The notes beneath the pieces were generated by a model. That model saw nothing but the letters and a program-made list of their open reading frames with translations, searched no databases and had not been told where the DNA came from. From a virus, in the IMG/VR virus record IMGVR_UViG_3300017735_002163, positions 1 through 64,000 of that record: DNA of 64,000 bases; one strand, given 5' to 3'. The position numbers and the translations under genes were made by a program. This document shows, one piece after another, positions 14,948 through 55,940 of this stretch. Positions within the stretch are counted from its first letter, which is position 1; the number at the start of each line of letters is the position of its first letter.

Positions 14948-14976
14948 TATATACCTTAGTTTGATGAGATTGTCAA
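14948..14976 (-). promoter_or_regulatory. Sigma70-type promoter for uvsW
   Basis: TTGACA-17-TATATA just before the ATG. Confidence 0.55.
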
Positions 14977-16554
14977 GAAGTATTTTCTACCACCAGCACC
15001 ATAGCCTGGTGTTACTTCAAACTCATTATCAAATACATCGCGAACAGTAAACGATACTGTGGCTTTTGCAAACTGTCTGCTGAACACAAAATCAAGTGTG
15101 CTTAGGTCATCCAGGCTTGCTCCATCGTAAGGTCCAGGTGCTCTGTCAAACATACCACTATAAATAGTTTTGAATTTTACATCACCAAAACTTGCATAGT
15201 AGCTCAACTGAGTTTTTAACTCTGGTACACGTGGTTGATCACTGTCTGTGTATCCAACCATTACATTAAGACTGCCATACGGTACAGCATAAGCATCTAC
15301 AAATCTAATGCCCTGTGTTTTGTATTCGCCTGAGTTAATGTATGTTGCACTGTTATACACACCTGCATCATCCGTGTAGCCTGATTGGTATTGTATACCT
15401 TGTTCAAATTCATACCTGTACAATGTTATAGCACCAAATGTAACTTCAGCACCCATAGACTCTTCTGCTTCTAAGTCTGCATTGCCTTGTACCCATACGT
15501 CACCATTTTGTTGATACAATGTAGGGTTACGATAACTGGTAGCAAAATTTATAGAAAGCAGTTCTTTGCTGTATCCTACTCTGTAAACAAATGCATCTTC
15601 GTTTACTCTTACGCCGACACCAAATTGGTTTTCAAAGTTAATAGATGCATAACCACTGACATCAGTCTGATCGTTATCCATATATGTTTCTTGATCACCG
15701 GTGATACCCACAATAAGTTCTGCGGCTGGTGTGCCAAGTAGATATTTGGTTTTAGCATCTAAGTAAAGTCTTTCTGCTTCGCTGTCATACGTTAAGTCAT
15801 CTCCAGTAAAATAATCTGCATTATTTTTGTTATAACCTAATGTGATGTTATCATTACGAACACTCACAGCAACTTTATTACCAGTCTGAGTACAATCGTT
15901 TGACTGTGAAAAACTTGCAGTATAGCAGTTGTCATAGTCATAATCGTAATCAGTGTAATTTACATTGATGTCAAATCCACCAACTGTTTGATCAAGCCTT
16001 GCTGTTTTGTTTACATAATTATCTGTTTCATCGTTGTCAGTTCTCACTGAGCCGTTTGATACATCAAAATATGTAACACCAAATCCGCTTTGACTTACAT
16101 CAACAAGTGTATGGTCTGACCCAAGCCTGGATACAAAACCGTCTTGTAGGTCGTCTGTGATAAACACTGAACCACCCAAACTGCCTGAACCATATAGCAC
16201 ACTGTTAGGACCACTAACAATTTTTAATGCTTCTTGTCCAGTAACAATGTCGTGACCAAAGTCATACCATCCTGAGCCTGCATCGTTAACAGGTACACCA
16301 TTCCTAAAAATAGTTGTGTGTTCTGTTTGTGCTCCACGCTCATTATAGCCACTAAAGCCACCAAAGCCTCCGGCTGTGTATGCCATTGCAGGCATTACTG
16401 TTTCTACTAACCCAAAGTCTTCGTTAACGTTTGGAGTAGTTTCAACAATTGTTGCACCGACTACAACAATTTCTTCTATCAAGTCATCTGCATACACGTT
16501 AATGTTTAATAAACATGCAACGGCAAGTAATGACGCTATCTTTCTATTCTTCAT
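14956..16554 (-). CDS. TonB-dependent outer-membrane receptor, BtuB-like
   Basis: Signal peptide, TonB box EEIVVVG, plug RGA...NGVPVND...GPNSVLYGSGSLGG, C-terminal DVFDNEFEVTPGYGAGGR. Confidence 0.85.
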   Translation of the reverse strand: MKNRKIASLLAVACLLNINVYADDLIEEIVVVGATIVETTPNVNEDFGLVETVMPAMAYTAGGFGGFSGYNERGAQTEHTTIFRNGVPVNDAGSGWYDFGHDIVTGQEALKIVSGPNSVLYGSGSLGGSVFITDDLQDGFVSRLGSDHTLVDVSQSGFGVTYFDVSNGSVRTDNDETDNYVNKTARLDQTVGGFDINVNYTDYDYDYDNCYTASFSQSNDCTQTGNKVAVSVRNDNITLGYNKNNADYFTGDDLTYDSEAERLYLDAKTKYLLGTPAAELIVGITGDQETYMDNDQTDVSGYASINFENQFGVGVRVNEDAFVYRVGYSKELLSINFATSYRNPTLYQQNGDVWVQGNADLEAEESMGAEVTFGAITLYRYEFEQGIQYQSGYTDDAGVYNSATYINSGEYKTQGIRFVDAYAVPYGSLNVMVGYTDSDQPRVPELKTQLSYYASFGDVKFKTIYSGMFDRAPGPYDGASLDDLSTLDFVFSRQFAKATVSFTVRDVFDNEFEVTPGYGAGGRKYFLTISSN

Positions 16555-37255: not shown

Positions 37256-39139
37256 TTATGCTTTGTCAATGATGTTACTTAAATAACCTCTTCTGCGTCT
37301 AAACAAAAGATTGTCCACATGTTCTTTCATGTTTTCCGGGAACATATTTGTTCTGTCACTTACTATATAAGTCGACGGGGTCATGTCAAGTTCAATTTTT
37401 TGGTCTTGTACGTAATCCCAGAGGTTAGTAAAGGTATTTATAGATTCTGAGTTAAAACGTGTGTTTTTGAATTGTTTTATACGTTTTATAGTTATATTTC
37501 TATAATCTGCAAGGATTTGCTCGGGGGTGTCAGGATATTGTTGTTGTGTGTAATCGCTAACACATTGTATAGCATATTCTAATAAGTCTTCGTTTTGCAA
37601 TGTAGACATCAAACTGATAATAATTTGCCAACTGTCAAATTTGTAGTCTTTGCTTTTGAGTGAAAAGTATCCGGTTCTGTGCCATTTGTGTATGCCGTCT
37701 CTGATTCTATCTTCCAGTTGGATAAACACAGGGTTGCGTTTGAACTCTAAAAACAATCCTTCATAAAATTCTTTGTAAGTGGTATTACCCTGTTTAACCA
37801 ATGCTCTCGATATTATATCGGATATACCTTGTGTGTGCAAACCTGTTATGTACCATGCTGTGATAAATGCTTCTATGATATCTGATTCAGACATAGTGCT
37901 GGTACTTTTTATAATAGGCACGTCTTCGTCAGGCACCTTTGAGTTGAAGTCATTGGTTTCGTAAAACATGTCATGTGCAATAAATGTTTCCAATTGATAC
38001 TTTTCAATATCCTGTTGCATTGGTGCATTTTCTAACATGTTTAACAGGAACACGTCGAGCCCACTGTGTAGTCCTGCATCAAGCACATCATAATAAACAT
38101 TCTTAATGGTGTCAAGTGTTTCGGTTGGTAATCCAACAATTATTTCTGTGAGAATAGAGATTTGATTTTTTATTCCTAAGTCTGTGATGTCTCGTATATC
38201 ATTAATACCCATGTTGGTACGTTTAATTGCTTCTAATACGTTTGGGGTAGTTGTTTGTAAACTTAAAGTAAATCCACTTCCTACTCCTGCTTCTTGAAAC
38301 TTTCTAATGATGCCAAACACATCTGCATTACTGTTTTTAGCATAACTCACACTGAGACCTGTTGGAACTGAATACAGTTTTTTAGACTCTACTATTTTAT
38401 CTGCTATGAGATTATCTCTTTCTCTGAACACACCGTAGTTTGCATTTGTGAGATTAATGAAAGGTAGACCGTTTTTGGCAAACCATTCTATTTCAGCAAA
38501 CACTCGATCTAATTTAAATTTAATAATTTTACTGTTAGTTGCACTACCCCAATCACAAAATGTACATCTATAAGGACAACCTCTGTCTGTCTCTAAAGTA
38601 GGCACCCATTCTATATCTGGGTAATCTGTGAGGAAGTGATCGAACACACCATCCAGATAAGGACTGGGTGTTTCTAATTTTTTAAGACGTTCAACAGTGT
38701 GTGTTCGTGGTAGTTCTTTACCGTCTAAAATCATTAATAGCAATTCTTGTACACATACTTCACCCTCACCAATACAAATGGTGTCTATGTAAGGGTGTTC
38801 TATAAAGTAACTTGGACTTGTATGTGCAACTTCGGGGCCACCAATTAAACTTATAACAGCAGGATTAATTTCTTTGACACGTTTTGCTAATTCATAAGTG
38901 TAGTTTTTATTCCACACATATAAACTGTACAACACTACATCACACTTGGCTAACTGCTGTGCTGTTTCTTCAACTGGGTCTCGTCTAAATGCCCAAACGT
39001 CTGCTGAAAAATGTTCTCTTATTTCTTCATTTTGTCTTGCATAGGCCCATAGCACACCAGAAGTGTAGGGCAAGTAGAAAGAATTTAGTATCTTGGGACC
39101 AGTTTGAAAATTTATTTGTGCTAACCCAAGAGAGAACAC
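37256..39139 (-). CDS. Cobalamin-binding radical SAM enzyme
   Basis: N-terminal B12 domain (SLYVWN, IGGPEV, IGEGE) and ETDRGCPYRCTFCDW CxxxCxxC. Confidence 0.92.
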   Translation of the reverse strand: MFSLGLAQINFQTGPKILNSFYLPYTSGVLWAYARQNEEIREHFSADVWAFRRDPVEETAQQLAKCDVVLYSLYVWNKNYTYELAKRVKEINPAVISLIGGPEVAHTSPSYFIEHPYIDTICIGEGEVCVQELLLMILDGKELPRTHTVERLKKLETPSPYLDGVFDHFLTDYPDIEWVPTLETDRGCPYRCTFCDWGSATNSKIIKFKLDRVFAEIEWFAKNGLPFINLTNANYGVFRERDNLIADKIVESKKLYSVPTGLSVSYAKNSNADVFGIIRKFQEAGVGSGFTLSLQTTTPNVLEAIKRTNMGINDIRDITDLGIKNQISILTEIIVGLPTETLDTIKNVYYDVLDAGLHSGLDVFLLNMLENAPMQQDIEKYQLETFIAHDMFYETNDFNSKVPDEDVPIIKSTSTMSESDIIEAFITAWYITGLHTQGISDIISRALVKQGNTTYKEFYEGLFLEFKRNPVFIQLEDRIRDGIHKWHRTGYFSLKSKDYKFDSWQIIISLMSTLQNEDLLEYAIQCVSDYTQQQYPDTPEQILADYRNITIKRIKQFKNTRFNSESINTFTNLWDYVQDQKIELDMTPSTYIVSDRTNMFPENMKEHVDNLLFRRRRGYLSNIIDKA

Positions 39140-46832: not shown

Positions 46833-48890
46833 TTATTTACTTGTAGCAATAAATATTCCATCCCAATCTTTTGGAAGTGTTTGAGTCTTTTGAAATTCGC
46901 AACGCTCAATCCACATATCATAATAACCTTTCATCTTGCCATCAAAATGCGTCTCTAATAATTTACACAATTTAATTGCTCTATCAAACTCTTGGTTTCT
47001 ATAATGTGTATGCATTGCATTATGCATCTCTTTAGACTTAGCATGTTTATCTGCTTTATAATCAAGCACAGTGTATATTTCAATGCCTATTGTTTTACCT
47101 TTAACTGCCAAGTCATCAACTTTTAAATAAAAGAATTCGTTTTTAGTTTTGTGATATGTACTACCACCGACTAATAGTAAGCACCCGTATTCCTTACACT
47201 TAGACTCAATTCGTGCGGCAGTTGATACAGCATCTCCAAGTACATCATAACTATGTCTGCTTGTAGAGCCCATCTCACCGAGATAACCAACGCCAGTGTT
47301 AATGCCAGCCCCCATACCAATTGGAGGTCTTCCTTCTGCTGTGATCTTATCATTAAATTTCTCCACTGCTCTCAGCATATCCAAACCTGTTTGCACTGCT
47401 GAGTGTTCATGCTTTGCATCATCGTTTGGTGCATTGTGTATATGCATACTTGCATCACCTATGTACTTGATAATCATACCGTCTGCATCAAGTACAGGTT
47501 GTGTGATAGCATCCATATAACCATTCATTAGTTTTGTGAGTCCTTGTACATCATCTCCAAAACTTTCACCTAATGGTGTGAAGCCACGCAAGTCTGAGAA
47601 GCATATTGATATCTCTCGCTTCATGCCTTCTTTGATCAATGCAGGATTTTCTTGTAACATACGCACAACTGTGGGTGAACAATATCCTGCAAATTGCTTT
47701 TCTATTTCTTGTCTTAATTTAAACTGTATCCAGAAGTTGTTAAAACTTGCCTGTGTAAATATTAAAAATGTTGCTATTGCAGGATATGTAGCATCAAATA
47801 AAACTAAGTTTGCTGTATAAGAATGTATAGTATAATAAGCAATAGACCCTATAATGCTTATTATACTAAACAATCCTGCCCATACAGGCAACTTGTATAT
47901 TGCTAAAGCAACTAATACCATGCTCAACAACGCACACACAAGCTCTGTAAGCGACGATAATTCTGATCTGGTAATGTTACTCCCATCTATAAAATTCTGT
48001 AGCATGTGTGCTTGTATATGCTGTGGATATATGTTGCCTATCGGAGTGGGCACCGGATTGGCAACACCTTCTGCACTCACACCCACTATGACGAACTTGC
48101 CGCCCATATTCGGTAAACTGTCTGCACCAGTGTATTCTATTTCTTCGAATGTATTATTAAAACGTATGTATGCTGTTCCATCGCCTTGTGTTACTACAGG
48201 AACAAATGGTGGTATAGCAAATTCTTGTATTCCTATCTCACTTGTTTTAATCATGTAACTGGGTTGACCAGTTTGCACTCTTAACATTTCAATTGCAAAC
48301 GAAGGATATATTTTATCCGCTACTGTGATTGCAAGTGGGTATGTTCTTGTTTGATTATCTGGTTGTGGTGCTGATGCATTAATACCAATACCAGATGCTA
48401 CTGTTTCCAACTCTGCTATATTTGTTACCAGATTTTTCCAAGTCAATAAGTGTTGCTGAGCCGGGCTCGGGCCTATTGTACCAGTCCCTATATGCGGGCC
48501 GGAACTCCTCACCCCTTTGGAACTTGGGGTCTGGGATAAAACTATTCCGTTTCCTTTTATCCATGATGCAAAGACTTCGTCTCCTCCAAAACGATCTACT
48601 TCAGGGAACATTAATGTAAAACCTACTATCCCTTGATTTTTTTGTCTTATGTCGTATATCATTTGTGCATAAGACTGCCTGGGAAATGGATACTGGCCTA
48701 AAGCATCTAAACTTTTTTCACCGAGATTAATTATAACTACTTCGTTACTTTGTTTTGTTTCGTCAAGTTGTTGGTAATAATCAAATGTCTGCGAACGCAA
48801 ACTTTGTAGTGGTGTAGGATCTGATATTCTCAAACCAAGTAATAAGCATATTGTTACTGCTACTGCCCAGCCGCTGTATAACCATTTCAT
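46833..48890 (-). CDS. CHASE2-domain class III adenylate cyclase
   Basis: N-terminal TM, CHASE2 (QYPFPR, VPTPIG), 3 TMs, FSDLRGFT, KYIGDA, GINTG, YDVLGDAVSTAARIE. Confidence 0.93.
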   Translation of the reverse strand: MKWLYSGWAVAVTICLLLGLRISDPTPLQSLRSQTFDYYQQLDETKQSNEVVIINLGEKSLDALGQYPFPRQSYAQMIYDIRQKNQGIVGFTLMFPEVDRFGGDEVFASWIKGNGIVLSQTPSSKGVRSSGPHIGTGTIGPSPAQQHLLTWKNLVTNIAELETVASGIGINASAPQPDNQTRTYPLAITVADKIYPSFAIEMLRVQTGQPSYMIKTSEIGIQEFAIPPFVPVVTQGDGTAYIRFNNTFEEIEYTGADSLPNMGGKFVIVGVSAEGVANPVPTPIGNIYPQHIQAHMLQNFIDGSNITRSELSSLTELVCALLSMVLVALAIYKLPVWAGLFSIISIIGSIAYYTIHSYTANLVLFDATYPAIATFLIFTQASFNNFWIQFKLRQEIEKQFAGYCSPTVVRMLQENPALIKEGMKREISICFSDLRGFTPLGESFGDDVQGLTKLMNGYMDAITQPVLDADGMIIKYIGDASMHIHNAPNDDAKHEHSAVQTGLDMLRAVEKFNDKITAEGRPPIGMGAGINTGVGYLGEMGSTSRHSYDVLGDAVSTAARIESKCKEYGCLLLVGGSTYHKTKNEFFYLKVDDLAVKGKTIGIEIYTVLDYKADKHAKSKEMHNAMHTHYRNQEFDRAIKLCKLLETHFDGKMKGYYDMWIERCEFQKTQTLPKDWDGIFIATSK

Positions 48891-48910
48891 AGTTATATTT
48901 ATCGTAAATA

Positions 48911-49627
48911 TCAGTCAGCAAATGCTCGTTCGAGCATGAAGTCGCCCATTTCGCCAGTGTTTCCTTCTTCCCAATTTAAATATGAAAAACGCTCTCTGCA
49001 TTCTTTATTAAGTGAGGGAGAACCGCAAACCATAACAGCATCAGTTTCTTTGGTTAAAGGTGAACCGAGAACTGGTTCAATGTGATTCCAAAACCTGCCT
49101 TGCCTAAAATAGTTTTCTCTGGTTACAGAAGGAATGTATAAAAATGGCATCATACCTGATATATCTTCCATGCTGTCCTTGTATGTAAGTTCTGCTACTT
49201 CTCTTACAGTGTGGAACAAATAGACGTTGTCGAACCTATCGTATGTTGCAGGGTCTTTAGCAATGCTTACAAACGGTGCTATGCCTGTTCCTGTTGCTAA
49301 CATTACTAAATTCTTTTTGGGTAATAAGTAATCACAAACTAAACTACCTGTAGTTTTTGGACCTACTAATATATCGTCACCTATTTTAATATTTTGCAAT
49401 TTACTTGTGAGAGGGCCATCTTGAACTTTAATACTGAGGAACTCTAAGTGGTCATCATAATTAGTGCTTACAATACTGTATGCTCTCATTATTTTTTTAG
49501 GTTCGAGCTCTAATCCTATCATAGCAAACTCTCCGTTTTTAAAACGGAAGGTTTTATCTCTTGTAGTTTTAAAAGAAAATAAGCGATCGCTGTAGTGTGT
49601 GATTTCAGTAACTTGCTCTTTATTCAT
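48911..49627 (-). CDS. fpr: Ferredoxin-NADP+ reductase, bacterial type
   Basis: RAYSIVS, GPLTS, ATGTGIAPF, VTRE, VCGSP, ERAF. Confidence 0.93.
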   Translation of the reverse strand: MNKEQVTEITHYSDRLFSFKTTRDKTFRFKNGEFAMIGLELEPKKIMRAYSIVSTNYDDHLEFLSIKVQDGPLTSKLQNIKIGDDILVGPKTTGSLVCDYLLPKKNLVMLATGTGIAPFVSIAKDPATYDRFDNVYLFHTVREVAELTYKDSMEDISGMMPFLYIPSVTRENYFRQGRFWNHIEPVLGSPLTKETDAVMVCGSPSLNKECRERFSYLNWEEGNTGEMGDFMLERAFAD

Positions 49628-49641
49628 GTAGATATTTATTA

Positions 49642-50160
49642 CTATCTGTTCTTGGAGCATTCTTTTCTGGCACGACTCCAGACATGAAAATTGTTTGCCA
49701 CAATAGCGGCCATAAAATAATTTGCACCAGCGAAATCCTCGTCTGTTAAAACAGTTCGTTTGGTACCGATAAACATAGCCGGTATTATAACTACTGATTT
49801 TAAAAATACTATTTCATGTAACTCAGGCTTTTTATCCAGTAGCGGATTTGCTTCCTCAATACAATCATACTTTACTGCTTCAACTGTGTTGTATATATCT
49901 AACAACTGAAATGCTGTAAACATTGCCCAGGATAATGGCGAAGCAGGTTCTTTCAGTGGTGGTAGATCTAAAGTGATGGCTGGCGGGTATTCGTATTCGA
50001 ATGTTGCTTGTCGAACTTCCGCTAAAACTTCTTTGCTATAGCAACACCCATGGCCATTGTTTATAAAAAATATTTGCTCAGGAGAAAGATTTGCTGGGAG
50101 ATCTGTTGCGTAACAGTTAAGAGAAAGTAGCGACAACATAATCATTGCCGCTAATTTCAT
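49642..50160 (-). CDS. Secreted/membrane hypothetical protein
   Basis: Signal peptide, EEANPLL motif, hydrophobic helices; AAGGAG RBS. Confidence 0.7.
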   Translation of the reverse strand: MKLAAMIMLSLLSLNCYATDLPANLSPEQIFFINNGHGCCYSKEVLAEVRQATFEYEYPPAITLDLPPLKEPASPLSWAMFTAFQLLDIYNTVEAVKYDCIEEANPLLDKKPELHEIVFLKSVVIIPAMFIGTKRTVLTDEDFAGANYFMAAIVANNFHVWSRARKECSKNR

Positions 50161-50279
50161 TATTCGCACTCCTTAGGATTACTCGAACAATAGTCTTTAA
50201 TTTGTTTTATTAACATTTTAATATCATCCTCATTGTCCTGCTTATCTTTGCGATTAGATAACAGGCTTAATCCTTTTTT
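50160..50279 (-). other. Candidate programmed -1 frameshift site and 37-codon extension
   Basis: A_AAA_AAG at 50273-50279, 7-nt spacer, hairpin at 50237-50265, open -1 frame ending in a TAATG overlap. Confidence 0.7.
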
Positions 50280-50551
50280 GGTGCTTCTGGTTCTTTTTGT
50301 AGTTCGTCAGTTTGTTTGTCAACTTCGGTTGCGACAGTTTCTACAACACCTTGTGCAGTGTTAATAGTTACGTCTGCAATTGCTTTTGCATCGTTAGTTA
50401 CTGCAACTGCCATTGTGGCGGCTCCGCCAACAACGCTGTCCACAGTACCTGTGACAATCTCTGTTCCTGCATTCCAGGCCCCTCCAACTGAGGCGCACCC
50501 TACAGTGCCTAAACAAAGTACCGCTACGAAGAACTTAATATGTGTATTCAT
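50267..50551 (-). CDS. Small lipoprotein
   Basis: GGAG RBS, lipobox TVGC, Ala/Val/Thr amphipathic helix. Confidence 0.8.
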   Translation of the reverse strand: MNTHIKFFVAVLCLGTVGCASVGGAWNAGTEIVTGTVDSVVGGAATMAVAVTNDAKAIADVTINTAQGVVETVATEVDKQTDELQKEPEAPKKD

Positions 50552-50611
50552 ATTATCTCCATGGTTAAATAGCATGCCAACTGCAATGCTACACTATTAT
50601 TTATCTGAAAG

Positions 50612-50920
50612 TTAGATGCCGTGGCTGTTAAAAGGACGATCTCCTGCTAAACTGTGTTGATCGTGTAGGTGTAATTCGTAGGCCAAGATATCTTTGGTAT
50701 TTTGGCAGTCGGTAGTGTGCAGTAGTTTTAATATTTCCATTCTGTTTGCTTCTTCTATTTGATGTACTACGTCACACCACATATAAAATACTGCAAATAT
50801 ACTTGGCACAATGATAATATAAAATACTAACCATGGGAAAAAGAAAGTGATAATTAAAACGTGTACGCCTATGACTGATAGTGAATATATCTTGAGACTA
50901 TTGAGCCATTTACTTAGCAT
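50612..50920 (-). CDS. Small membrane protein
   Basis: Two hydrophobic segments. Confidence 0.65.
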   Translation of the reverse strand: MLSKWLNSLKIYSLSVIGVHVLIITFFFPWLVFYIIIVPSIFAVFYMWCDVVHQIEEANRMEILKLLHTTDCQNTKDILAYELHLHDQHSLAGDRPFNSHGI

Positions 50921-51077
50921 CGACCTTCAGGTTTAGTTGTTCTATGTATGCATTGCTGTGCCAATAAGTATCTAACACAATGTCAGCCACAAGAGCAATT
51001 AACACCAATGTTAGTATTACAGAAAGGTATAGGTTTATACCCGCAGATATTTTTAACCACTTAATCATATGCTTCAT
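50910..51077 (-). CDS. Small membrane protein, early gene
   Basis: One TM; promoter TTGACA-17-TATAAT at 51085-51113 directly upstream. Confidence 0.65.
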   Translation of the reverse strand: MKHMIKWLKISAGINLYLSVILTLVLIALVADIVLDTYWHSNAYIEQLNLKVDAK

Positions 51078-51119
51078 AGGATATATTATAGTTGATATTG
51101 TAGGACTTGTCAACCGGTT

Positions 51120-52007
51120 TTAATTGCTACCGTTTACTGTTACTGAACATCCTGCTGTGTTATAACATACACCTGTTATACTGTAACTGCCGGCCGATGA
51201 TGTCATGTTTTGATCTAAGTCAAGTGTGTAAGCACCAGTACCGTATGTTAAATCAATTGCCGCTGTTGCGTTATTGCCACCACGTTGATTAACATCAACA
51301 CTATGCCCGTCACCATCTAACACAATGTCTGCCCATTTAACACCACCGTTGCCTCGTTGATATAACACCACATCATTGTAATCACCTGTTATCTCTATAA
51401 AGCCATCGTGTCCTGATTTGCCTAACTGCCTGTGGTCTACATCATTGTAGTCACCTGTTATAATGTTTGCCAAATGATGAGGACCTGCGTTAGTACCGCC
51501 TGACGATCTGTTAGTATCTGTTTGGCTACTTGCTAAAGTATTGTTGGAGCCATCTATGGTCCAATATGCTTCGTGGCCGCCTTCTTCGTCTATGTCAAGA
51601 TTGCCTGTTAAATGTTTACCTTGCCACACTTTGAGATCATTATTACTACCAGTTGCATCTACTTTTGCAAAGTTATCGTTGCCGCCATTGCCTTGAAATA
51701 AATCAAACGTGTTGTTACTGCCATTTAAGTTACCTTCAAATAAATGACTGTAGCCTTGCTGATAAAATGTTAAGTTATTAGACGCACCAAGTAATTGACT
51801 ATTGATGTCTATGCCTTGGATTACATTGTCGTATCCATCTTGTGTTACCGTTAGAGTAAGATTGTCACCTGCTTGGTCAATGAGAATAATGTTGTCTGCA
51901 TTTGCTGTCATAGGCATTAATAAAAACATGCCCAGTATAATATATCCCAATACTAAAAGAGGGGTATCTTTTGGTTTCATTTCGTTTAGTTTTTTATCTA
52001 TGTTCAT
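51120..52007 (-). CDS. Curlin-like repeat protein
   Basis: Signal peptide; repeated QxGxxN and GxxN units; in an operon with csgFG. Confidence 0.78.
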   Translation of the reverse strand: MNIDKKLNEMKPKDTPLLVLGYIILGMFLLMPMTANADNIILIDQAGDNLTLTVTQDGYDNVIQGIDINSQLLGASNNLTFYQQGYSHLFEGNLNGSNNTFDLFQGNGGNDNFAKVDATGSNNDLKVWQGKHLTGNLDIDEEGGHEAYWTIDGSNNTLASSQTDTNRSSGGTNAGPHHLANIITGDYNDVDHRQLGKSGHDGFIEITGDYNDVVLYQRGNGGVKWADIVLDGDGHSVDVNQRGGNNATAAIDLTYGTGAYTLDLDQNMTSSAGSYSITGVCYNTAGCSVTVNGSN

Positions 52008-52008
52008 A

Positions 52009-53196
52009 TTAACCTTGTGTTTGTCTTATGTATATATTTATACCTGAACAATCATTTACACATATAACGTTAGTTCTATTCTCTATGTCTGTTTCAAGTC
52101 TTGCATTACTGCCAACTGGCACTTTAACACTGATAGTACCATTAACTTCTCTGTAGAACCATATAAATCCAGAACGATCTATTATGGTATTAAATTGTGT
52201 TTTTGGATCAAACCCTGATGCTAATGTACCTGTTATTATATCAACGCCTTGTTGTCCTTCTGTTTTTTCTGACAACACTGCAAGTTTATCTGCTTCGTCT
52301 AATATTTCTAATAAATCCTGTAAAAAATCAACACCTAATATGTCAACATCTAATTCACTGAATTCTAAGTCTATGCTATCTTCATTTTGATCGTCGAGCA
52401 AATTTTCTTCTAAGAAATCTATATCGAGATCACTGAATGCTAAGTAGTCAATGCCCTTTCTTGCTTCTATTTGTTGTTCTTCTGCTTCTGTGATTTCTGC
52501 TGGTTCACTTACAATAAACATGTTGTCTATCATATTTAAATTTAAATCTTGTATAACCACTGGCTGAGTTGGCGGTGTTTCAAACGTGCTTACCATTACT
52601 GCTTGATAGGCTTCTTCTAATACAACTGTTCCGCCATCATTAGTAACTGTGATAGCACCGGACGGTCTACACCCTTCTTCTAATTTTACCTTGTCTGTGC
52701 AATTTGCATCTGGCAATAGTATAACTAAACTCCTGCCTAATTCATCTACTGTGGTTGTAAAATCTGTTCCACGCACACCAATTGTTGCTGTGGGAGTTTG
52801 TATGGCTATGTTTTCTTTTGGTACAAGTCCTAATCCGCCTGTGGCAAATCTTGCTGTGCCTGACACAAAATTCATTGCCATTTTACTTTTGCTTGGATCG
52901 GGGTCGTAGACATACTCATTGATTACTATCAACGTATTTTCTGTCAGACTGACCTGTGTTTTATCTACGAATTCAATTTTAAGTCTACCTGCTGTAGTTT
53001 CTACATTGTCCATACTAACAATTGTAGAATCTAAAACTGCAGACAGTTTTTCACCAGATGTTCGTTCTATACTACCCGGATTTCCAGTCTGCTCAAATAC
53101 GCCGCCTATCCTTTCAGCGGCGCTTGAGTTAGACAAAAACGAAAACAGTACAACAAAACTAATCTTTCTGAGTAATGCTAACTGTTGCGTTTTCAC
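52009..53196 (-). CDS. FecR-domain exported protein
   Basis: Signal peptide; D.VET..GR..I.F.D.T...L.EN, G.ARF, IQTPTATIGVRGTDF; acidic C-region. Confidence 0.85.
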   Translation of the reverse strand: MKTQQLALLRKISFVVLFSFLSNSSAAERIGGVFEQTGNPGSIERTSGEKLSAVLDSTIVSMDNVETTAGRLKIEFVDKTQVSLTENTLIVINEYVYDPDPSKSKMAMNFVSGTARFATGGLGLVPKENIAIQTPTATIGVRGTDFTTTVDELGRSLVILLPDANCTDKVKLEEGCRPSGAITVTNDGGTVVLEEAYQAVMVSTFETPPTQPVVIQDLNLNMIDNMFIVSEPAEITEAEEQQIEARKGIDYLAFSDLDIDFLEENLLDDQNEDSIDLEFSELDVDILGVDFLQDLLEILDEADKLAVLSEKTEGQQGVDIITGTLASGFDPKTQFNTIIDRSGFIWFYREVNGTISVKVPVGSNARLETDIENRTNVICVNDCSGINIYIRQTQG

Positions 53197-53881
53197 TGTC
53201 TATATCTAAATCCATATGACCGTAGCATGAAGTTGCACCAGTGGCACATGTACCGGAACTTTGAATTAAATCAATGTCTCCGCCTGAACCGTCGTATACT
53301 ACTTTCATGTACTGATCTGCACCATCAGTTTGGCTGGTTACAATATCGTTATTATCACCAGTTAGGTCAAAATTCCAAGTTGCATCATCGACTTCAATGT
53401 CAATGTCCCATACGTTGCTGTCACCTAAGATTGCTAAGTCGAAATCTAATCTTTCTGCACTTGCGGCTGATCCTAAGTCAAAGTCAAACGTATTTGAATC
53501 ACCTTGAATTGTAGCGAGTATATTGCCTGTATCGGCTGAACCTGTGTCACCAACTTTGATGTCCCAGATATTACTGCTACCAGTAAAAGTCCAATCGTAT
53601 GTACTGCTGTCTGCAGTTATACTACCAAAAAACTCATTACTGTTACCTATTTGGTCTAAATCGATATTCAATGATGAACCAACTATAGTTAGATCACTAC
53701 TTTGATCTGTATCGCCGGCTATCTTGTTACCAAAACCTTGTTGTAAAATAGTTAAATTCAGTGTGTCACCAACTTGATCAATTAAGATTTCATTATCAGT
53801 TGCACCTGCTGAATAAACTGCTCCACTAAAGGTCATTAACCCTACTACCAAACTTAATGCTGATAAAGTTTTATTCAACAT
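53159..53881 (-). CDS. Curlin-like beta-solenoid repeat protein
   Basis: Signal peptide; IDQVG, QQGFGN, DQIGNSN, GSSN, GDSN repeats. Confidence 0.75.
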   Translation of the reverse strand: MLNKTLSALSLVVGLMTFSGAVYSAGATDNEILIDQVGDTLNLTILQQGFGNKIAGDTDQSSDLTIVGSSLNIDLDQIGNSNEFFGSITADSSTYDWTFTGSSNIWDIKVGDTGSADTGNILATIQGDSNTFDFDLGSAASAERLDFDLAILGDSNVWDIDIEVDDATWNFDLTGDNNDIVTSQTDGADQYMKVVYDGSGGDIDLIQSSGTCATGATSCYGHMDLDIDSENATVSITQKD

Positions 53882-54788
53882 TTGTTTCTCCTATGTTTAA
53901 ATTTTCTACAGGTGGGAGACTTTCAGCATCATTGCTGGTAATCGTCCAGTAACCTCTATCGTCACCTTGTTCGATGAGTGCAAGTACTGCCGCTTCCGTG
54001 GCGCTCCTTACTGCCCATGTCACACTTTCGTTAGAAGTAATTCCTGTTTCTAATTCTAATAATTTTGTATCCATGTCAAGAAAACGAAATACATCTCCTC
54101 CCATGCCTACACTAAGTATTGTCTTGTATGTCTGTACGTTAAGTATAACTTCGCCTGTTAAAGTACTAACAGCACGTAGACTAACAATAATGCTGTCTCG
54201 TCTGTATTGAGCACTTCCGCCGATACCTAAATATCTGGCTCCGTTACCTCCTGTTTCTATGTTACTATCGTACCCAACTATACCGCCTTCAAGTAAAATA
54301 CCCGCAAACAACATTGGTTGTAGTTTTTGGCTCTCTTTACCTGCTTTGGCATAATCGTCTCTGGTACTGCGGATAATTTGTCTTTCTCTGACCAGGTTAT
54401 CCAGACCTACTCCTCTTTCAACAACACGGAACCAAGTACCGTTTGCAGTCTCACCTGCGCCTGCCGCCTTAAGAGCATCAATTAACAATGCTTTTGCACC
54501 CTGCGTTACTGCTGTGCTGAACAATGCTATATTGTCTTTTTGTTTTCTTTGACCTGTTAAGTCAGAGAACTGATATACTGCAACCACAGGCATTACTTCT
54601 GCAGGTGGTAACTGTCTTAATCTTTCATATGTTGGTAATTCGACTTGTTTTGGTTCTTCGACACACTCCATTACATTGTCGTAACACCACTCGCCTGTTA
54701 ATGCATTATTAGGCAATGACATTGATGCACACCCCGACATTATCGTGCTAAAAAGTAGTGTAGCAATTAGCGAACTATAACTTTTCAT
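53871..54788 (-). CDS. csgG: Curli secretion channel CsgG
   Basis: Lipobox MSGC; VAVYQFSDLTGQ, FSTAVTQG, WFRVVER, ERQIIR, GGIVGYDSN. Confidence 0.95.
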   Translation of the reverse strand: MKSYSSLIATLLFSTIMSGCASMSLPNNALTGEWCYDNVMECVEEPKQVELPTYERLRQLPPAEVMPVVAVYQFSDLTGQRKQKDNIALFSTAVTQGAKALLIDALKAAGAGETANGTWFRVVERGVGLDNLVRERQIIRSTRDDYAKAGKESQKLQPMLFAGILLEGGIVGYDSNIETGGNGARYLGIGGSAQYRRDSIIVSLRAVSTLTGEVILNVQTYKTILSVGMGGDVFRFLDMDTKLLELETGITSNESVTWAVRSATEAAVLALIEQGDDRGYWTITSNDAESLPPVENLNIGETNVE

Positions 54789-54794
54789 ATTGTC

Positions 54795-55337
54795 TTATCC
54801 GCCGCCGATGGCAACTCCTACAGGTATATCTATTGTAGTCATTGTTCCGTCTGAGCTTACAATGGTTAGCCTAATTATTTCTATGCCGTCATCTCCAACC
54901 ATTCTTTCGTATGTGACTGTATTTCCTTCGATAGTGAACACACCATAGTCTGCTCCGTCTTCGTTACCGAACATACTGTCTACTAACTGTCTACTAATTT
55001 GACTGTAAATTCTACTTTCTAAATTTCTCAAAAATTTATTAAGTGTTGAATTTTCTTCTTCACGCTGAATTCTTAATAGCTCAGCGTCTATTTGATCTTT
55101 AATTTTGTCTTTACGACTTTTTTGTTGATTCTCAATGGTTAGGTAATGGGCGCCTGTTCCTACACCACTGAAACTTGGATTTTTAAATTTATGTACTAAT
55201 TCGTCTGCTAATGCTAACGGACTCATGAATAATAGTCCTAACATTATACCGAATGCAAATGCTTTGAATAAATCACTACCAGACCATATACGTGGTCCTA
55301 CTTGCGATTTAAGTAACTCCCAATCTTTATCTCTCAT
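54795..55337 (-). CDS. csgF: Curli assembly component CsgF
   Basis: Signal peptide then LVHKFKNPSFSG; FLRNLESRIYSQ; TTIDIPV. Confidence 0.88.
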   Translation of the reverse strand: MRDKDWELLKSQVGPRIWSGSDLFKAFAFGIMLGLLFMSPLALADELVHKFKNPSFSGVGTGAHYLTIENQQKSRKDKIKDQIDAELLRIQREEENSTLNKFLRNLESRIYSQISRQLVDSMFGNEDGADYGVFTIEGNTVTYERMVGDDGIEIIRLTIVSSDGTMTTIDIPVGVAIGGG

Positions 55338-55644
55338 CTGTCTGTACCTCTGACTGTAGTGTGGCAAGAGCCTCTTTTTGCTTGGCTTCTTTTATTACCT
55401 TCTGTCTTTCTTTGTATTCTAAAACTACATTTACTTTTTGCTGTAGTCGTATCATATCCTGATCAAGCATTCGTGTTTGATCAATTACACGTATTAATGC
55501 CATATGCATTGTTTCTAATTCGGGGTCTATTTTCTCACCTATAAACCACCAAACATAATATATAAAATATCCTAATCCTACACAAAGTACTATTGGAAAG
55601 CCAAATGTGTTAATTGCTTCAGCAATTCCATTCACATCTTCCAT
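55327..55644 (-). CDS. Small membrane protein (TM plus coiled coil)
   Basis: INTFGFPIV...GYFIYYVW; similar to the adjacent gene. Confidence 0.7.
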   Translation of the reverse strand: MEDVNGIAEAINTFGFPIVLCVGLGYFIYYVWWFIGEKIDPELETMHMALIRVIDQTRMLDQDMIRLQQKVNVVLEYKERQKVIKEAKQKEALATLQSEVQTDER

Positions 55645-55940
55645 TAGTCTCTCCTTGCATCAATTTTGTTATCTTCTACAAAATTTTCTGCTCGTGCTAC
55701 TCTGTCGATGTCAGGGCTTAGTTCAAGAGCACTACTTACAAGCAAGTCAATTTTCATCATCTCATTGCTCATTGTTCTGGCTCGATTTTCTAAACTATTA
55801 CAAAATATAGTTAGAGTTTTTATTTGCCCTACTATGCCTTCAAGTATTTGTTTGATAACAAGGAATATGAAAAAACCCATTACCATACTGCCGGCAATTG
55901 GTGCTCCAACTTCTGCTATTAATCCAAAAATTTCATTCAT
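55644..55940 (-). CDS. Small membrane protein (TM plus coiled coil)
   Basis: IAEVGAPIA...GFFIFLVIK. Confidence 0.7.
   Translation of the reverse strand: MNEIFGLIAEVGAPIAGSMVMGFFIFLVIKQILEGIVGQIKTLTIFCNSLENRARTMSNEMMKIDLLVSSALELSPDIDRVARAENFVEDNKIDARRD

Follow-up and report, generated by a model that had tools for sequence, protein, structure and literature searches.

A probable programmed -1 ribosomal frameshift at the 3' end of a predicted lipoprotein gene in uncultured marine T4-like phages

Can a small phage gene that seems to end like any other give rise to two different proteins? The question is raised by the minus strand of a 64,000-nucleotide stretch of viral DNA (referred to here as the window; positions 1 to 64,000 of IMG/VR record IMGVR_UViG_3300017735_002163), in which an open reading frame (ORF) of 94 codons plus TAA (50267..50551), a predicted lipoprotein gene with 93 database homologues, closes with CCA AAA AAG GAT TAA. 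An earlier note on this DNA had proposed, from the letters alone, that a fraction of the ribosomes slips back one nucleotide at this point and continues into a cysteine-containing tail. Our comparison of viral relatives indicates that the 3' end of this gene very probably carries a conserved cassette for programmed -1 ribosomal frameshifting. We infer the slippage itself from the signals, their conservation, their co-occurrence with the tail, the coding selection on the tail and the covariation of the stem that follows.

In the mechanism proposed, most ribosomes would read CCA AAA AAG GAT and stop, producing a 94-residue precursor and a mature lipoprotein of 76 residues. A fraction would stall on A_AAA_AAG, held by a hairpin 7 nucleotides downstream and perhaps assisted in this pause by the nearby zero-frame stop. 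The two tRNA-Lys would then slip one base back onto AAA AAA, and translation would go on in the -1 frame for 37 codons, yielding a 130-residue precursor and a mature protein of 112 residues, the Cys-x6-Cys loop of which would be disulfide-bonded in the periplasm.

Slip site and tail in viral relatives

The slippery heptamer A_AAA_AAG that the earlier note had placed at the close of the lipoprotein ORF is found at 50279..50273 (feature 50273..50279, minus strand), in the X_XXY_YYZ phase of the zero frame, and the zero-frame stop TAA (50267..50269, minus strand) comes 3 nucleotides past it, within the spacer that leads to the hairpin. Among the 89 ORFs of the window with at least 80 residues, the lipoprotein gene is the only one with an in-frame X_XXY_YYZ (Y being A or T) situated 0-3 nucleotides before the stop. 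From the GGA at 50273 the -1 frame is open for 37 codons (50163..50273, minus strand; GLSLLS...DYCSSNPKECE, in full GLSLLSNRKDKQDNEDDIKMLIKQIKDYCSSNPKECE), with the two-cysteine end that had been described, and terminates at a TAA (50162..50160) that overlaps the ATG of the next gene (50160..50158) as TAATG. The long form is predicted to have the 130 and 112 residues given above as precursor and mature protein, respectively.

The hairpin of a single window is only moderate and the significance was therefore drawn from conservation across relatives. A total of 176 viral loci were compared, in three sets: the window plus the best 80 of 168 IMG/VR relatives of the lipoprotein (set 1, 81 loci), 76 loci of a sister clade (set 2, L084-L159) retrieved by a scan with the distant homologue P0091, and 19 loci retrieved with the query P0106 (set 3). 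Heptamer and -1 tail occur together in 98 of these loci, both are missing from 76, and in the other two the heptamer is broken and the tail is found in the +1 frame. The heptamer conservation that had been named beforehand as a check was therefore found: a canonical in-frame heptamer is kept by 98 of the 100 tail-bearing loci vs 0 of the 76 tail-less ones. Broken down by set, heptamer and tail are present in 80/81 loci of set 1, window counted, the exception (L075) having neither of them and a terminator right behind the stop. In set 2, 75/76 loci had no in-frame heptamer in the last 30 nucleotides and no Cys-loop motif in any of the six frames; the sole locus with a heptamer (L159, G_GGA_AAG) has a tail that ends in FYCSNNPEYCDD. 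Heptamer and tail were found in 17/19 loci of set 3, with the sequence A_AAA_AAG_TAA in all 17 and tails of 58-71 codons.

The heptamer is not always the same. Over the 98 canonical loci there are 79 A_AAA_AAG, 16 G_GGA_AAG, two C_CCA_AAA and one C_CCA_AAC (62, 15, 2 and 1 in set 1), and the gap between stop and heptamer is 0 or 3 nucleotides in all the canonical cassettes listed, those of L036 and L037 being judged by eye. A quick maximum-likelihood tree was built from 94 columns of 107 distinct lipoproteins and rooted at its midpoint; it is weakly resolved, and 55 of the tail-less sequences group in one clade with 97% support. The heptamer types interleave on this tree, where A_AAA_AAG needs at least 5 changes and G_GGA_AAG at least 4 to fit the well-supported branches, and no non-slippery intermediates between types appear among the canonical tail-bearing loci. 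The letters switch while the site is always slippery, which argues that slipperiness itself is maintained. G_GGA_AAG, used by 16 of the relatives, is the heptamer of phage lambda. Both G_GGA_AAG and C_CCA_AAG are given, besides A_AAA_AAG, as highly shift-prone in Escherichia coli in the relevant passage of a review (PMC5009743); C_CCA_AAG is absent from the heptamers found in the 98 canonical loci. An assembly or sequencing error at the A run can be rejected, given 98 independently assembled loci with four different heptamers and a DNA contig from another study (X7) identical across the site and free of indels in slip site and tail. A tRNA-Lys of the phage, by which the slippage could be tuned, was looked for and not found among the 4 tRNA genes of the window.

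The -1 frame is open for 31-59 codons in set 1 and for 31-71 overall in the 98 loci, and tail-bearing loci share with the window as little as ~30-45% lipoprotein identity (tblastn). The tails of set 1 end in [YF]C-x2-[NFQ]-P-x2-C, with C-x5-C in L036 and L037, and over the canonical loci the motif is [YF]CxxNPxxC, its Y, C, N, P and C being invariant or nearly so. Differences at the first, second and third codon positions of the -1 frame amount to 1017, 651 and 1729 in 139 moderately diverged, mutually non-independent pairs of 44 distinct tails. Such a bias toward third positions is the pattern left by selection on a coded product, here that of the -1 frame. The conservation starts at the first codon past the slip site (G/V-L/S/T-x-F/L-S/F...), and the best-conserved part, made up of a predicted helix and YCxxNPxxC, lies beyond the hairpin. 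In the extension a short patch of hydrophobic residues would be followed by a charged linker, then by an amphipathic stretch and, at the C-terminus, by the Cys-x6-Cys loop (YCSSNPKEC), the putative amphipathic helix and disulfide being read from the hydrophobic spacing and the two invariant cysteines.

A profile of the tail compared with 1.84 billion representative proteins retrieved 16 at E <= 0.001, mostly ORF calls that consist of the tail only. Among the others, P0106 (88 residues) joins a shortened lipoprotein and the tail in one frame, and P0108 (52 residues) is a tail with its own signal-like N-terminus. P0080 (136 residues), a homologue of the lipoprotein, is a second in-frame fusion. 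P0106, P0108 and P0080 are one sequence each on contigs of 1.0-1.2 kb and were given little weight. Four secreted bacterial proteins of 136-151 residues (P0096, P0097, P0104 and P0111, the last a hypothetical protein of Sinimarinibacterium flocculans) contain 3-5 tandem [FWY]CxxNPxxCE units like the phage tail, and the two of them that were scanned, P0096 and P0097, belong to no Pfam or NCBIfam family. P0095 (176 residues, from a single contig of 1,286 bp) has an L181-type tail in frame behind an unrelated N-terminus, what may reflect a different fusion partner or an artefact of gene calling or assembly. T4-like cyanophages carry CP12. A similarity of the tail to this protein was discarded, as the 11-residue match of the profile (window 50163-50195) to the C-terminal Cys-loop region of PDB 3qv1 chain G was non-significant (E 0.68).

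The downstream hairpin

The hairpin that had been claimed 7 nucleotides past the heptamer was returned identically by ViennaRNA. It is a stem-loop of 10 bp with one bulged G and an 8-nucleotide loop (50237..50265, minus strand), composed of the 5' arm CCTGTTATCT (50265..50256), the loop AATCGCAA and the 3' arm AGATAAGCAGG (50247..50237), and the spacer that separates it from the heptamer, GATTAAG, contains the zero-frame stop. The 45 nucleotides past the heptamer were compared with 150 random 45-nucleotide windows of the same locus in 46 distinct cassettes. In our window the fold has -10.0 kcal/mol (z -1.52) and ranks at 7.5% among the random windows. Over the 46 cassettes the mean z is -2.03, with 25 of them in the lowest 5% and 31 in the lowest 10%. 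Nearly all fold a hairpin soon after the heptamer, from quite different sequences, and the first paired base is located 4-7 nucleotides past it in 37/46.

The stem also covaries. RNAalifold, applied to 11 close relatives, gave 10 pairs, 5 of them with compensatory changes, and with these 11 as training set a covariance model matched 17 sites in 55 sources (the training sequences and 6 others). In the alignment fitted to this model (16 distinct rows) 91.9% of the cells pair vs 76.3% in shuffles (0/500 reach the real value), 6/10 stem pairs have changes on both sides (reached by 8/500 shuffles) and the covariation score is 0.423 vs 0.182 in shuffles (0/500), while controls with the alignment slid gave at most 62.0% paired cells and a score of at most 0.149. 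Stem covariation in homologues, another of the checks proposed in advance, is present by this measure. The 5' arm of the hairpin encodes the FSLF/LSLL patch of the tail and the 3' arm its K/E-rich stretch; as the arms double as codons, the early tail sequence is partly dictated by the RNA. An upstream stimulator resembling a Shine-Dalgarno sequence was rejected as unconserved: such a 4-mer is absent 3-18 nucleotides upstream in the window, and any is found in only 14/54 distinct cassettes, in a purine-rich context.

Alternatives to ribosomal slippage

The tail could be a separate small gene, not fused to the lipoprotein, at which ribosomes start internally or re-initiate once past the lipoprotein stop. 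The window does have an ATG at tail codon 20 (MLIKQIKDYCSSNPKECE) with GAGG 11 nucleotides upstream, tail-only ORFs of 29-79 residues have been called in some lineages (P0099, P0102, P0103, P0107), and the tail is kept in two loci that have no canonical heptamer (L167 and L174), the 79-residue ORF called on this arrangement belonging to a cluster of 7 members, one of which is present on 24 contigs. However, the ATG in question (MLIKQ...), already singled out in the earlier note as a possible independent start, aligns to L, I, A, V, T or K in the relatives. In 51/53 distinct cassettes an ATG is missing from the part of the tail where a start would still take in the conserved helix (12 codons or more ahead of the Cys motif), 35/53 have no ATG, GTG or TTG there, and 10/53 have none of the three in the entire tail (counted by hand from the listing); a -1-frame stop stands immediately upstream of the heptamer in 19/53. 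With start codons unconserved in the tail, the lipoprotein frame appears to be its only conserved entry. Furthermore, a separate tail peptide would have no signal peptide, yet its two invariant cysteines suggest an oxidising compartment, and the heptamer at the exact junction, in 98 of the 100 tail-bearing loci and none of the 76 tail-less, would be left unexplained. We regard a separate gene as very unlikely.

The frame might change instead by transcriptional realignment, with the RNA polymerase slipping on the A run. A_AAA_AAG does contain six consecutive A, and poly-A tracts can slip in transcription as in translation, but the length given in the same passage is runs of more than 7 A (PMC3711429). 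In addition, the 19 loci with G_GGA_AAG, C_CCA_AAA or C_CCA_AAC have homopolymers of at most four, compatible with tandem tRNA slippage, and a covarying 3' hairpin at 4-7 nucleotides is a stimulator for the ribosome. Contigs from three metatranscriptomic libraries, of three studies, also bridge slip site and tail without indels (X15, 49892-50326; X16, 49780-50543; X17, 50124-50543), a weak argument here as contigs drop rare variants. Polymerase slippage is in our judgement highly improbable. The same contigs show the region present with its genomic frame, what does not imply transcription itself, and stretches that they do not cover are uninformative. Of the words sampled from the interval 49700-51100, a share of >= 0.91 is contained in runs of seven studies, none flagged as a possible source; X7 is the one among these that was aligned to the window. 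A transcript end at 50543, where X16 and X17 finish, was rejected, since X15 has a variant at 50544 and the position is read as a k-mer branch. Across four runs, 50161-50290 is free of variants in heptamer, hairpin and tail, and the flanks vary at 50100, 50327, 50328 and 50387, an observation that is weak as it comes from contigs.

That there is no recoding at all, the region past the stop being a non-coding RNA structure or a decaying gene remnant with an incidentally open -1 frame, is extremely improbable: a pyrimidine-rich 5' arm and a purine-rich 3' arm would alone impose FSLF...KEEK on the first tail residues, and A/G-rich sequence seldom contains stops, but the third-position bias extends to the helix and YCxxNPxxC beyond the hairpin, the tail is open for 31-71 codons in 98 loci down to ~30-45% lipoprotein identity, and its motif is found also in real secreted bacterial proteins such as that of S. 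flocculans (P0111).

Programmed -1 frameshifting by the ribosome is the reading that we prefer, and a number of points weigh against it. The window hairpin is modest (91-nucleotide fold, z -1.04, with 25/200 shuffles folding as well), and 15/46 cassettes are outside the best 10% of random windows (for example L061, L072, L073, L010 and L017); in some lineages the hairpin is weak or lacking. The alignment used for the covariation was itself fitted to the model, with only 17 matches among 55 sources, and the tree behind the heptamer switching is a quick one of only 94 columns. Contigs cannot reveal rare RNA variants, and an RNA library may contain DNA. The in-frame fusions P0080 and P0106, which count in favour of the frameshift, are single sequences on single contigs of ~1.2 kb and possibly assembly errors. 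Finally, in 2 of the 100 tail-bearing loci (L167:363-640 and L174:1430-1700) an A>G change disrupts the heptamer, a single base is lacking right past the stop and the tail, intact, is in the +1 frame. Judging from its ORF cluster, this is a real lineage, in which no shared slip signal was recognised, and the tail can apparently be retained without the canonical site; this sub-lineage may reach it by a different recoding event, +1 or -2.

The lipoprotein, known frameshifts and the curli-like module

The product of the gene is a predicted exported lipoprotein of the envelope, its export and lipidation being suggested by a signal peptide with a lipobox-like TVG before the cysteine (residues 1-19; 50495..50551, minus strand). 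The precursor begins with MNTHIKFFVAVLCLGTVG, followed by C19ASVGG..., and the predicted mature short form has 76 residues. Cys19 is conserved in at least 90% of the family, and the position before it is G or S in all of the sequences that include the N-terminus (31 of the 32 aligned); the call follows the lipobox rule for bacterial lipoproteins rather than a predictor. Database homologues at E <= 0.01 number 93 (from 184 candidates), nearly all with 92-95 residues and from marine metagenomes. A cellular origin was rejected, as 0 of 61 pattern matches were confirmed in a set of 185,579 prokaryote species, each represented by a single genome, and the Atlas clusters of the lipoprotein are 98-100% viral. 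A tblastn search of 50,697 phage records gave no match either, a weak negative since the low-complexity filter was on. Pfam and PHROG have no family for lipoprotein or tail, the SseD matches in NCBIfam are below threshold (16 bits vs a cut-off of 266), and the best PDB sequences are not significant (E 0.83 and 0.68). The Atlas lead to DUF6726 was discarded, its score of 0.88 being under the reliability line of the Atlas itself, and Pfam is silent on this domain.

To our knowledge, the well-supported programmed frameshifts of phages occur for the most part in genes of tail assembly chaperones, in a small number of capsid genes and in mobile elements. The frameshift of lambda gpG/gpGT, and its analogues in tailed phages, were reportedly described by Levin, Hendrix and Casjens in 1993 and by Xu, Hendrix and Duda in 2004. 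The cassette studied here resembles gpG/gpGT in that a small phage gene has, a few codons ahead of its stop, an X_XXY_YYZ heptamer for a -1 slip, and in the pair that would result, a major short form and a minor one extended at the C-terminus, with the N-terminal part in common. In contrast, gpG/gpGT is a cytoplasmic chaperone, and the lipoprotein has a signal peptide and lipobox, no sequence similarity to it, a conserved 3' hairpin, and a gene located in a curli-like/cyclase module instead of between those of tail tube and tape measure. The identity of a tail assembly chaperone, the biology of which is covered in sections of the review PMC5009743, was rejected by the signal peptide and by the gene context (membrane, curlin-like, FecR and cyclase neighbours).

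In E. coli dnaX, A_AAA_AAG is accompanied by a downstream stem-loop stimulator, as described in a passage of PMC3711429. The lipoprotein cassette pairs the two in the same way as dnaX tau/gamma, so the likeness to a signal of the dnaX and insertion sequence (IS) type that the earlier note had drawn holds for the signal, although the gene family differs. The shifted product is shorter in dnaX and longer here, and the upstream stimulator used by dnaX is the one that we found unconserved (14/54). A_AAA_AAG is common in IS elements. In transposases of the IS3/IS911 type and in the T7 capsid gene 10A/10B, some of the product is extended at the C-terminus by a -1 shift, as would happen here, only that the class of protein is in this case a lipoprotein instead of a transposase or a capsid protein. 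Another small phage lipoprotein, the o-spanin of the Rz1 type, is encoded beside a type II inner-membrane protein with a long periplasmic coiled coil, in the lysis cassette. The gene described here likewise adjoins genes for small inner-membrane proteins and its product has predicted periplasmic cysteines. Unlike Rz1, it has no proline-rich sequence, and no lysis cassette was seen around it; the periplasmic portions of the upstream membrane proteins are short, and it is within the curli/cyclase module that the gene is conserved.

No description of a frameshifted phage lipoprotein was found in the literature, supplementary lists of predicted frameshift genes falling outside the search. The word lipoprotein is absent from the available text of the PRFect paper (PMC10885494) and from the opening 300,000 characters of the review by Atkins (PMC5009743), lipoprotein and frameshift are both absent from the curli-operon papers as available (PMC7029224, PMC9004378), and the frameshift passage seen for pelagimyophages concerns tail genes (PMC8163748). 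The mechanism is a classical one, and it is the setting, an exported phage lipoprotein, for which we found no published case. The frameshift would affect an exported protein outside the virion and would have been kept over a wide radiation of abundant uncultured marine T4-like phages, in the genomes of which gene callers miss a conserved domain of 31-71 residues. The natural controls (tail-less sisters without heptamer, heptamer switching, covarying stem) provide a clean test case for recoding predictors.

Upstream of the lipoprotein gene and on the same strand come, in this order, two small proteins, CsgF (E 8e-16), CsgG (E 3e-47), a curlin-repeat protein, a FecR-domain protein (E 6e-12), a second curlin-repeat protein (E 3e-7) and membrane proteins of 67 and 102 residues; downstream there are a 172-residue protein, an FNR-like reductase and a CHASE2 adenylate cyclase. 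The two small membrane-protein genes (50612..51113, minus strand) are directly upstream of the lipoprotein and co-conserved with it according to tblastn in relatives. The next gene (49642..50160, minus strand) codes for the 172-residue protein, with a signal peptide and a weak match to DUF5658. The TAATG overlap of the -1 frame stop (50160..50162, minus strand) with its start had been taken as translational coupling. The overlap stands in the window, but as a general trait coupling was rejected: stop and start overlap or abut in only 7/54 distinct cassettes, a lineage-specific feature, and the next gene has an AAGGAG of its own (50174..50169), 8 nucleotides upstream.

In the 80 relatives of set 1, tblastn found the 67-residue gene in 53, the cyclase in 36, a curlin-like gene in 30, the 102-residue gene in 29 and the 172-residue gene in 24, all of them lower bounds with flanks of at most 2.5 kb, and the 172-residue gene follows the lipoprotein in 19/19 loci of set 3. 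The tail-less sister lipoproteins are located 0.7-1 kb upstream of the two small proteins and csgF (23-25/76), where the curli-like operon begins and away from the cyclase.

The order of two small proteins, CsgF, CsgG, curlin-repeat, FecR-domain and curlin-repeat proteins and CHASE2 adenylate cyclase is the one described, in passages of the corresponding papers, for the cultured pelagimyophage HTVC008M and methylophage Melnitz (PMC7029224, PMC9004378), where the function of the operon is called a mystery or a role in lysis timing or aggregation is proposed. The cyclase is 32.6% identical to that of HTVC008M and 51% to that of Melnitz. In these two phages, which have both the curli-like module and the cyclase, the second curlin-like gene abuts the cyclase and no lipoprotein gene was found between them. 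Unlike them, the window (46833-55940) contains an insert with the two membrane proteins, the lipoprotein, the 172-residue DUF5658-like protein and the FNR-like reductase, the last only sometimes present in the relatives that share the insert. The small ORFs before csgF in HTVC008M and Melnitz were rejected as homologues of the lipoprotein, being of a different family.

By analogy with lambda gpG/gpGT, the cassette would supply two forms of one envelope lipoprotein in a set ratio to the curli-like/FecR/CHASE2-cyclase module, and these two forms with their partners offer a concrete handle on a phage curli-like/cyclic AMP module that is unexplained. A more specific version, which we hold as rather unlikely, is that the lipoprotein acts as an outer-membrane adaptor, its stoichiometry set by the frameshift, in a machine of CsgG/CsgF pore, curlin-like and FecR proteins and CHASE2 cyclase, with body and tail binding different partners. 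The shared body would self-assemble or bind one partner, and the rare looped tail would dock a second one, for example a small membrane protein or the 172-residue protein. If true, the assembly logic of lambda G/GT would have been moved to a device of the host envelope.

The source record in IMG/VR is linear, has 83,376 bases and an estimated completeness of 23% (CheckV). A Pfam scan of the window found a large terminase of the T4 type, tail sheath, gp15 sheath stabiliser, a DnaB-like helicase and fibre domains, and the closest match of the terminase is to jumbo Pseudomonas phages of the PA5oct group (56.7%). From this gene content, the window appears to be a genuine uncultured marine T4-like phage. 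It also encodes, at 14956-16554 and 37256-39139, a protein with a TonB-dependent receptor plug domain and a B12-binding radical SAM enzyme.

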